This document shows positions 8,140 through 9,401 of a stretch of 64,000 bases of DNA, piece after piece; the first letter of the stretch is position 1; the number at the start of each line of letters is the position of its first letter. The stretch is taken from assembly GCA_046861395.1 (NCBI GenBank), contig JBHHUC010000002.1, positions 28,677 through 92,676 of the forward strand, given 5' to 3'. The translations under genes and the position numbers were made by a program. This DNA is from Fidelibacterota bacterium. Lineage in GTDB: Bacteria; Fidelibacterota; Marinisomatia; Marinisomatales; JABMOV01. The notes under the pieces were generated by a model, which searched no databases, was not told where the DNA came from, and worked only from the letters and a program-made list of their open reading frames with translations.

Positions 8140-8751
8140 CTAAAGGTCGATTCCCGAAAATGCCATGAATGACATGGATAGAAGTCCGGTGACCAGCATG
8201 GTAATTCCCAGACCGCGTAATCCCACCGGTACATTGGAATACCGCATCTTCTGCCGGATCGTCGCCATGGTAATGATCGCCAGAAACCAGCCGAACCCCG
8301 AACTGAAACCATACACGGTGGATTCCATCAGGTTATAATTCCGTTCAATCAGCAGCAGCGATACACCCAGGATGGCACAATTGACGGCGATCAGGGGGAG
8401 AAAAATTCCCAGAGCGGAATGAAGGGCCGGACTGAAACGATCCAGCACCATTTCCAGTAATTGGACGGTGGCGGCAATGACGGCAATGAACACAATGTAG
8501 GACAGATAGCTCAGATCGATATCCGGGAAGCCTAACCAGGCCATGGCCCCGTCATTCAGAAAATAATAGTTAATCGCCCAGTTCATCGGTGCGGTTATGG
8601 TCAGGACAAAGGTTACTGCCAGCCCCAATCCGATGGACGGTTCCACTTTCCGGGAAATGGCCAGAAAAGGACAAATCCCCAGATAAAAGGCCAGAATAAT
8701 GTTTTCGGTAAAAATGGAGCGCAGGGCAAGGCTGAGATAATGTTCCATCAT
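8140..8751 (-). CDS. nqrE: NqrE-like subunit (Na+-NQR subunit E / RnfA family), orphan
   Basis: 203 aa. MEHYLSLALRSIFTENIILAFYLGICPFLAIS...LGIFLPLIAVNCAILG...YGFSSGFGWFLAI...MRYSNVPVGLRGLGITMLVTGLLSMSFMAFSGI is collinear with my recalled Vibrio NqrE. Both cluster-ligating Cys are present (C27, C125). Confidence 0.85.
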   Translation of the reverse strand: MMEHYLSLALRSIFTENIILAFYLGICPFLAISRKVEPSIGLGLAVTFVLTITAPMNWAINYYFLNDGAMAWLGFPDIDLSYLSYIVFIAVIAATVQLLEMVLDRFSPALHSALGIFLPLIAVNCAILGVSLLLIERNYNLMESTVYGFSSGFGWFLAIITMATIRQKMRYSNVPVGLRGLGITMLVTGLLSMSFMAFSGIDL

Positions 8752-9401
8752 GATCCGTGTCCTCCATGGCCCTCAGCCGGCAGATTCTTTTGTAAATCGG
8801 GTAAAAGGGCGTTCTGCAACCAAACCAATAATCCCAGAATGATGAATGCTCCCGGAGCCAGAATCATCAACAGAGTATTCTGATAGCCGGCGGCATAAAA
8901 GGATTCGGGAATGATGGTCCATCCGAACAATGACCCGAAGCCAAGCAATTCCCGGAAAAAGGCCACGGAAACCAGTGCGATGCCATATCCTACCGCATTC
9001 CCCAGACCATCCAGAAAGGCTTTCCCGGGAGAATTATGTATGCTGAATCCTTCGGTTCGTCCCAGGACAATGCAATTGGTAATGATCAGGGCCACAAAGA
9101 CCGACAACTGTTTGCTGATGGAATACAGGTAGGCTTTTAACACCTGATCGGTAATAATCACCAGTGAAGCAATGATCACCAGTTGAACGATGATTCTGAC
9201 GCGGGATGGAATCAGGTGGCGCAGCAGTGAAACAAAGGTACTGGATAAGGATAATACGAAGATCACGGCTGCCGTCATTACAATGGCTGTTTCCAGCTTT
9301 ACGGTCACCGCCAACGCCGAACAAAATCCCAGCACCAGATAGGTGATCGGATTTCGTTCAATCAATGGATCGGTAAAGATTTTCATGGTTTTGGATGCCA
9401 C
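8748..9401 (-). CDS. nqrD: NqrD-like subunit (Na+-NQR subunit D / RnfE family), orphan
   Basis: 217 aa with a GTG start at 9401 and GGAGG 8 nt upstream. ...[16 protein letters not shown]...[54 protein letters not shown]... closely tracks my recalled Vibrio NqrD. Cys C27 and C110 are conserved. There is a 4-nt ATGA overlap with nqrE and a His/Gly tail (EGHGGHGS). Confidence 0.85.
   Translation of the reverse strand: [217 protein letters not shown]

Follow-up and report, generated by a model that had tools for sequence, protein, structure and literature searches.

Outside the locus described here, NqrD and NqrE, like the related RnfA and RnfE, are to our knowledge known only as inseparable parts of six-subunit respiratory pumps. 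The locus is a pair of genes, nqrD' and nqrE', lying among copper-efflux genes in a 64,000-nucleotide window (the whole stretch of DNA that we analysed: positions 28,677 to 92,676 of contig JBHHUC010000002.1, assembly GCA_046861395.1, from a Fidelibacterota bacterium). In Na+-NQR (Na+-translocating NADH:quinone oxidoreductase), published work assigns NqrD C29 and C112 and NqrE C26 and C120 as the ligands of an intramembrane [2Fe-2S] cluster; recent structures and simulations find this cluster alternately accessible from both sides of the membrane, with reduction driving the switch from inward to outward, and work from 2025–2026 locates Na+ translocation as well as the passage of electrons across the membrane in the D/E dimer. 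RnfA and RnfE form a homologous inverted heterodimer, with an intramembrane iron–sulfur (Fe-S) centre on four cysteines, and have been proposed as a redox-driven Na+ translocator.

The window pair shares with Vibrio cholerae NqrD and NqrE (PDB codes 7xk3 and 8a1t) its family, length, cluster cysteines, gates, hinge, D133, E95 and topology bias, and differs from them in its copper-island setting (with no nqrA, nqrB, nqrC, nqrF, apbE or nqrM nearby) and in a set of residues: I28F/Y, Q24L and A118T in NqrD, M25I, S27P and Y106H in NqrE, the C-terminal tail and R199. The direct evolutionary source is the canonical nqrABCDEF-apbE-nqrM operon of the Fidelibacterota (Marinimicrobia), whose proteins are 52–70% identical to the orphan clade, carry LQVLGIC and GRAEAF motifs and an acidic C terminus, and are always encoded in a six-gene operon. 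DsbD, CcdA and ScsB, together with MsrQ, offer a functional analogy only: their folds are unrelated, and they rely on a thiol–disulfide cascade or haem b as against an Fe-S one-electron centre. ScsB and MsrPQ are tied to copper stress. Full-text searches of the literature on stand-alone NqrDE or RnfAE, on copper links and on DUF2231 yielded no account of this module.

Identity of the gene pair

The two reading frames, nqrD' (8748–9401, minus strand; 217 residues, GTG start) and nqrE' (8140–8751, minus strand; 203 residues), share a 4-nucleotide ATGA overlap that contains the ATG start of nqrE'. A Shine–Dalgarno sequence, GGAGG, can be read 8 nucleotides upstream of the GTG (9410–9414, minus strand), and the GGAGGA ribosome-binding sequence of nqrE' (8760–8765, minus strand) is built from Gly-Gly codons of the NqrD' tail, which indicates translational coupling. 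Against the NCBIfam NqrD equivalogs TIGR01939 and NF006777, NqrD' scores 283 bits (cut-off 235) and 271.5 bits (cut-off 244.85), and NqrE' matches the NqrE equivalog TIGR01940 over its full length at 294.3 bits (cut-off 247.55). Every Rnf model in NCBIfam stays under its cut-off on the two proteins (the RnfA model reaches 202 against 229 on NqrE'), and no rnfB, rnfC, rnfD or rnfG gene is found in the window, setting the pair apart from the Rnf complex. Rnf-Nqr (PF02508) is the sole Pfam family found in either protein.

The best matches of solved structure are V. cholerae NqrD and NqrE (7xk3_D and 7xk3_E, E about 1e-68), and alignment to these chains places NqrD' C27 and C110 on the ligands C29 and C112, and NqrE' C27 and C125 on C26 and C120. 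All four cysteines are invariant in the 158 NqrD and 132 NqrE sequences that we aligned. NqrD' ends in a His-rich tail (...EGHGGHGS) that is found across its clade. Searches by tblastn with NqrA, NqrB, NqrC, NqrF and ApbE returned no match in the 64-kb window. A preliminary description of the locus had called the genes an ATGA-coupled pair (the peptides that it quoted are encoded here, on the minus strand), had assigned them to Nqr rather than to generic Rnf, and had noted the four Fe-S cysteines, the His/Gly tail of NqrD and the lack of nqrA, nqrB, nqrC and nqrF across the window; each of these points is borne out. Judged by sequence, the two proteins belong to the NqrD and NqrE families; judged by gene content, this is not a Na+-NQR locus.

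Recurrence and origin of the pair

The identical protein is on record from a Fidelibacterota metagenome-assembled genome (MFQ6604032.1). The closest relatives of NqrD' (62–77% identity, 211–222 residues) all lie in copper islands of the same kind. Copper-type NqrD occurs in ten distinct lineages (the window, L001, L003/L004, L005–L007, L183, L094, L095, L096/L097, L101 and L102), and by tblastn nqrA, nqrB, nqrC and nqrF are absent at 10/10 of these clade loci. Wherever the flank is long enough, copA is found within about 1.5 kb (8/8), with an AraC gene adjacent in seven of these eight; the side on which it lies varies and the linkage stays. About 157 other loci (80 representative-genome loci, 75 of 80 metagenome loci, and L012 and L013) prove to be ordinary nqr operons where their flank suffices to judge, and none of them has copA nearby. 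All 80 loci recovered by scanning the GTDB representative genomes with NqrD' are canonical operons, and a plasmid collection likewise held canonical nqr operons only and no copper-type pair. Every canonical Fidelibacterota nqr operon that we examined carries its own D and E. Among these loci a short sequence motif separates the two settings without exception, GRTEG or GRTEA marking the copper context and GRAEA or 'GRAD.' the nqr operons, of which 16 loci had a motif that pattern matching did not read.

Four assemblies that derive from different sequencing runs share the AraC–D–E–CopA junctions at 100% identity, and the arrangement is therefore not chimeric. The preliminary description had leaned on an intact contig and had raised a recurring linkage of D/E to metal genes in related genomes; the four assemblies and the ten clade loci uphold both.

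Neighbour-joining trees (200 bootstraps) gather the copper-island NqrD sequences in one clade (200/200) and the copper-island NqrE sequences in another (197/200), and both clades nest among canonical Fidelibacterota Nqr sequences. Three subclades can be told apart: subclade a (the window and L001) and subclade b have paired genes, and subclade c keeps NqrD alone, NqrE being absent within 10 kb. In the displayed tree c joins b, a grouping that carries no bootstrap value, and a groups with b in 48/200 replicates; were c grouped with b, the loss of NqrE would be secondary. Nonsynonymous divergence (dN) is 0.09–0.30 with synonymous divergence (dS) saturated, a pattern resembling that of CopA from the same islands, which points to purifying selection and to long co-travel with the island. 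As judged from sequence comparison, the pair is a duplicated Na+-NQR membrane core that was separated from nqrABCF and taken up into an island for copper/silver efflux. A near-identical subclade-b NqrD' (P0121, in the cluster of P0004) has been deposited from a metagenome-assembled genome labelled Planctomycetia, through either mis-binning or transfer of the island outside the Fidelibacterota.

Residue changes and subunit contacts

Comparing 19 clade NqrD with 139 canonical sequences, and four clade NqrE with 128, separates a retained gating apparatus from a remodelled surround. The window pair keeps the gate leucines (D-L26 and L107, E-L23 and L115), the hinge proline E-P114, D-D133 and E-E95, and the backbone Na+-site residues are conserved. 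With all of the gating machinery kept, the pair is best explained as a transmembrane device that would still be redox-gated, and most likely it still forms the inverted NqrD/NqrE heterodimer. The clade-specific residues of window NqrD' are L22, F26 and T116 (V. cholerae positions 24, 28 and 118), and those of NqrE' are I26, P28, Y82 and H111 (V. cholerae positions 25, 27, 77 and 106). Three exchanges are fixed in clade NqrD: I/V28 to F or Y (19/19, against 0/139 canonical), Q24 to L (19/19; Q in 138/139 canonical) and A118 to T (19/19; A in 137/139 canonical). In NqrE all four clade members have M25 replaced by I (M in 126/128 canonical), S/T27 by P (0/128 canonical) and Y106 by H (7/128 canonical). 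The conserved Arg199 near the NqrD C terminus is lost in the clade, and the last 20 NqrD residues hold about three histidines as against 0.26 in canonical sequences. The inward gate D-L26, invariant in canonical sequences, is Met in 8/19 clade members and Leu in the window.

Assigning membrane sides from the distribution of Lys and Arg, and from the published account of the helices that close each side, would place most of these changes, and the tail, on the cytoplasmic half, where NqrF normally docks. The cluster-side changes, the tail and the loss of R199 together suggest a changed cytoplasmic partner or a changed redox potential. The exchanges beside the ligand cysteines, in which a Ser hydroxyl and a backbone NH are lost and an aromatic is gained, may retune cluster potential or access.

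Contacts with the remaining Nqr subunits were assessed at the published NqrB-interface residues and the NqrC 'latch' loop, as per-site entropy relative to a canonical Fidelibacterota set of similar depth. Clade entropy is 1.3 times canonical overall and 2.1–2.4 times at NqrB-facing and NqrC-facing positions and in transmembrane helix 6; N177, M178 and G179, at the end of the NqrC latch loop, are invariant in canonical Fidelibacterota and variable in the clade. This pattern is a mild, not a decisive, sign of loosened contacts with the other Nqr subunits.

Redox neighbours in relatives

In subclade c, nqrD' always has as its immediate neighbour a gene for a 148-residue Rieske protein, in either order (L094 9371–11231; L095 9297–10421; L096 3438–5341; also L097, L101 and L102). 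The encoded protein has an RRxFLK twin-arginine translocation (Tat) motif, a membrane anchor and both of the Cys pairs typical of bc/b6f-type Rieske proteins, and its best matches are PetC-type proteins. A 57-residue YHS/TRASH gene usually accompanies nqrD' in this subclade, and one subclade-b island has the same Rieske gene together with a flavin adenine dinucleotide (FAD) oxidoreductase. The notion that the island Rieske is a 'spare part' is unsupported, its closest relatives being in metal islands or solitary and not beside cytochrome b.

Two subclade-b lineages carry a GrdB-like gene (PF07355) with an in-frame TGA just upstream of nqrD' (L003 9214–9990; L004 5918–6690; L183 9150–9990). Past the TGA the frame is conserved for about 85 codons, with an S-U-x-L-C motif (PS-U-xLCNQT), and a hairpin 13 nucleotides downstream of the TGA resembles a selenocysteine insertion sequence, with compensatory stem changes and a conserved GGUCG loop. 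This is probably a selenoprotein gene that gene callers have truncated. None of the three genes (Rieske, FAD oxidoreductase or GrdB-like) is present in our window.

The lone NqrD' of subclade c keeps a normal positive-inside bias. We reject dual topology for this subclade, whose protein is no obvious homodimer of that kind, the inside-minus-outside difference in Lys and Arg being 6.4 against 4.7 for canonical NqrD.

Islands of the Fibrobacterota–Chlorobiota–Bacteroidota (FCB) group that lack NqrD' hold a recurring set of genes beside copA, cupredoxin or multicopper oxidase genes, comprising small YHS proteins, an ICMT/PEMT-like methyltransferase, a DUF5676 membrane protein and a Tat-Rieske protein; the Rieske gene set is found at L178 4305–9755, L182 3341–6706 and L003 5676–9086. 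It sometimes includes an FAD oxidoreductase whose tail is rich in Cys and His. From its gene content we read this set as a periplasmic Rieske module of copper islands.

A possible transmembrane electron relay

The preliminary description had put forward a stand-alone conduit that could reduce periplasmic copper or Cys/Met sites. The redox proteins beside the module in relatives, taken with the remodelled cluster surroundings and cytoplasmic face, favour a conduit of this stand-alone kind, and we tentatively prefer the reading in which nqrD'E' would be regulated by copper and, as a one-electron relay across the membrane, would serve the periplasm during copper stress. In the mechanism that we propose, cluster binding, electron transfer and its direction, the partners and the copper-related purpose are all putative. 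NqrD' and NqrE', co-expressed with the HMA-like AraC regulator and the copper pumps, would form an inverted heterodimer holding one [2Fe-2S] cluster on its four cysteines in the middle of the membrane, exposed by turns to cytoplasm and periplasm. A cytoplasmic reductant would supply the electrons. Ferredoxin is plausible in the window host, since the window encodes a 2-oxoacid:ferredoxin oxidoreductase (27844–29703, minus strand; POR and POR_N domains) and reduced ferredoxin is thus plausibly available; in relatives the donor might be the GrdB-like selenoprotein or the FAD oxidoreductase. A periplasmic copper-handling acceptor would then take the electrons: the Tat-anchored Rieske protein in relatives, and in the window a Cys-, Met- or His-rich island protein, or copper.

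An isolated D/E pair that is under selection, even one reduced to D, would offer a minimal system in which to probe what the dimer can do by itself, and the finding bears on the mechanism of NQR and RNF as well as on bacterial copper homeostasis. A relay would add a redox component to the Cus/CopA islands of abundant marine bacteria in oxygen-poor waters, where the usual O2-dependent cuprous oxidase may not work. More doubtful is the stronger claim that D'E', without the other Nqr subunits, could be a self-contained, Fe-S redox-gated device dedicated to copper defence and a third kind of envelope conduit, next to the thiol-based DsbD/CcdA/ScsB and the haem-based MsrQ. Such a minimal D/E might couple electron passage to the transport of a monovalent cation, which could conceivably be Cu+ or Ag+.

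Several observations count against an electron relay. The window island has no Rieske, FMN_bind, Fer2 or cytochrome gene, and so offers no donor or acceptor that can be named. The maturation genes nqrM and apbE are missing from the island, which makes the module dependent on the housekeeping system. The Rieske family recurs, at 60–67% identity, in other FCB-group bacteria whose copper islands are without NqrD'; its adjacency to nqrD' suggests a partnership without proving it, and may reflect a shared copA neighbourhood. A lone NqrD' cannot rebuild the four-cysteine site as an antiparallel homodimer, and the fixed topology of the D-only subclade gives a hint that its protein pairs with the NqrE of the housekeeping complex. 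The clade shows no variation in the NqrC-contact loop around Q100 and also retains most of the canonical conserved sites.

The last two of these features lend weight to the main rival explanation, that NqrD' (with or without NqrE') is a copper-stress isoform that replaces the housekeeping D/E within Na+-NQR at high copper or silver. The swap would shield the membrane Fe-S cluster and the cation pocket from thiophilic metals, with no need for a separate donor or acceptor, and, if true, would represent a metal-stress-specific replacement of a subunit in a respiratory complex. The clade is confined to a phylum whose members have complete nqrABCDEF-apbE-nqrM operons; nearly all canonical sites are kept (gates, Na+ site, D133, E95 and the NqrC-contact loop); and the D-only subclade, with its fixed topology, is most simply seen as a partner of housekeeping NqrE. 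The changes near the cluster are mostly towards bulkier or more hydrophobic residues (Q to L, I to F/Y, G to A, G to V, S to P), which fits shielding, Ag+ and Zn2+ are known to inhibit Na+-NQR at nM–µM levels, and the title of one paper connects copper sensitivity in V. cholerae with the loss of NQR. The published Ag+ sensitivity, however, maps to cysteines of NqrF and not to D/E; the NqrB-facing residues and the end of the NqrC latch loop (N177, M178 and G179) are relaxed beyond the rest of the protein, and the NqrF-facing cytoplasmic side is the most remodelled, with R199 lost. An isoform would also leave the Rieske, selenoprotein and FAD oxidoreductase genes adjacent in relatives unexplained, and on balance we regard the swap as rather unlikely.

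Direct metal handling, in which the four-cysteine site or the cation pocket would bind, sense or move Cu+ or Ag+ and the His-rich tail would collect metal, seems to us improbable. It draws on the recent assignment of Na+ translocation to NqrD/E itself, with an alternating-access pocket beside the cluster, on a tail that is specific to the clade, on the Y106H exchange at the cytoplasmic gate loop of NqrE and the Met at D L26 in 8/19 clade members, and on the position of the genes between a metal-sensing regulator and a Cu+ ATPase. Yet the window pair gains no thiophilic residues along the pathway (L26 stays Leu, and E M25 is lost), a passive path for Cu+ would import copper, which is odd in an efflux island, a simple metal site need not conserve the whole redox-gating apparatus, and the redox neighbours of relatives fit badly. 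A trivial origin, as a piece split off the housekeeping operon, a decaying leftover carried along in a mobile island or an assembly chimera, draws on the ISL3 transposase fragments and tRNA genes that bound the island and make gene shuffling plausible; it is very improbable given the identical junctions in four independent assemblies, a clade separate from canonical D/E with fixed diagnostic substitutions, strong purifying selection over saturated synonymous divergence, the same linkage in ten lineages and the complete canonical operons of the phylum.

The copper island and its surroundings

The module sits in a co-directional series of genes, in the order outer-membrane factor, CusB, CusA, P-II-like, AraC, nqrD', nqrE' and CopA, and by Pfam and NCBIfam the locus has what defines a copper efflux island: an RND (resistance–nodulation–division) pump with adaptor and outer-membrane factor, a Cu ATPase and a regulator. 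All on the minus strand, these are the outer-membrane factor (15470–16732), a CusB-like adaptor with an HMBD domain (13618–15480), a CusA-like RND pump (10392–13604) and a P-II-like protein (10051–10395), whose gene follows cusA in all islands of this type.

The AraC-family regulator (9459–10037, minus strand; 192 residues from Met21) lies 57 nucleotides upstream of nqrD' and has an HTH_18/HTH_AraC C terminus and an N-terminal CxxC domain. The longest frame reaches 10097 (TTG) and overlaps the end of the P-II-like gene; other assemblies call the start at Met21 (10037), which is probably the true one. CopA, a copper P-type ATPase that carries a YHS domain at its N terminus along with two HMBD domains, is encoded at 5530–8055 (minus strand), and may start at 8019, as called in other assemblies. 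The preliminary description was right about both neighbours, copA downstream and AraC upstream; the CxxC domain of what it called an AraC/HMA regulator matches Pfam HMA below threshold (E 9.8e-4; 19.9 bits, cut-off 24.8).

Between nqrE' and copA, other assemblies of the lineage annotate a 36-residue open reading frame (ORF; 8024–8134, minus strand) as a gene; it is probably not one, having no counterpart in any related island. Relatives carry a conserved sequence, TTACGTAACGGAA (with variants), upstream of copA (L003 11868–12025, L005 11293–11498, L094 11232–11403, L095 10422–10559 and L096 5342–5501), and the window has a looser version, ATTACGGCGCGGAA, at 8020–8139 (minus strand). This sequence may be the operator of the HMA-like AraC regulator; the 57-nucleotide gap upstream of nqrD' lacks it. 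Scans against shuffled sequences put promoter-like sites some two standard deviations over the shuffled level and terminator-like sites at background, and no intergenic promoter or terminator site stood out.

CopA is followed by a series of small envelope proteins rich in Cys, Met and His, together with DUF302, DUF2231 and DUF6370; these downstream genes (714–5513) are conserved together with the module in relatives. The first encodes a membrane-anchored, Cys-rich, CcmH-like protein of 122 residues (5145–5513, minus strand; motif CSCGSCDEENLNACTC; the CcmH match is weak and sub-threshold), a candidate periplasmic thiol or metal site of a type that comes after copA in most related islands. It is followed, all on the minus strand, by a Big_5/CopC-like protein (4287–5129), a Met-rich membrane protein (3813–4268), a TRASH/YHS-like periplasmic protein (3377–3781), DUF302 (2944–3429), an HMBD protein (2443–2910), DUF2231 (1081–2148) and DUF6370 (714–1091).

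The DUF2231 protein is present in nearly all islands, and in L005–L007 its gene lies directly upstream of the AraC gene. Its predicted structure (predicted local distance difference test, pLDDT, 73) has a four-helix membrane domain and, by fold search, a galectin/CBM66-like beta-sandwich; the search recognized no redox fold. Invariant histidines lie in the membrane domain (His12, His17 and His83) and in the beta-sandwich (His253, His254, His305, His317 and His319). On this predicted model it is possibly a copper-binding envelope protein.

Elsewhere in the window, a 1038-residue ORF with no Pfam match (33134–36250, minus strand) adjoins a TonB-dependent receptor. The copper island ends near 17.3 kb, at ISL3 transposase fragments and tRNA-Pro and tRNA-His genes. 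The ISL3-family transposase is broken into three ORFs (17586–17834, 17987–18484 and 18488–18796), and G+C falls to 0.41 across the transposase and tRNA stretch (17586–19440); the island looks to have been inserted beside the tRNA genes.

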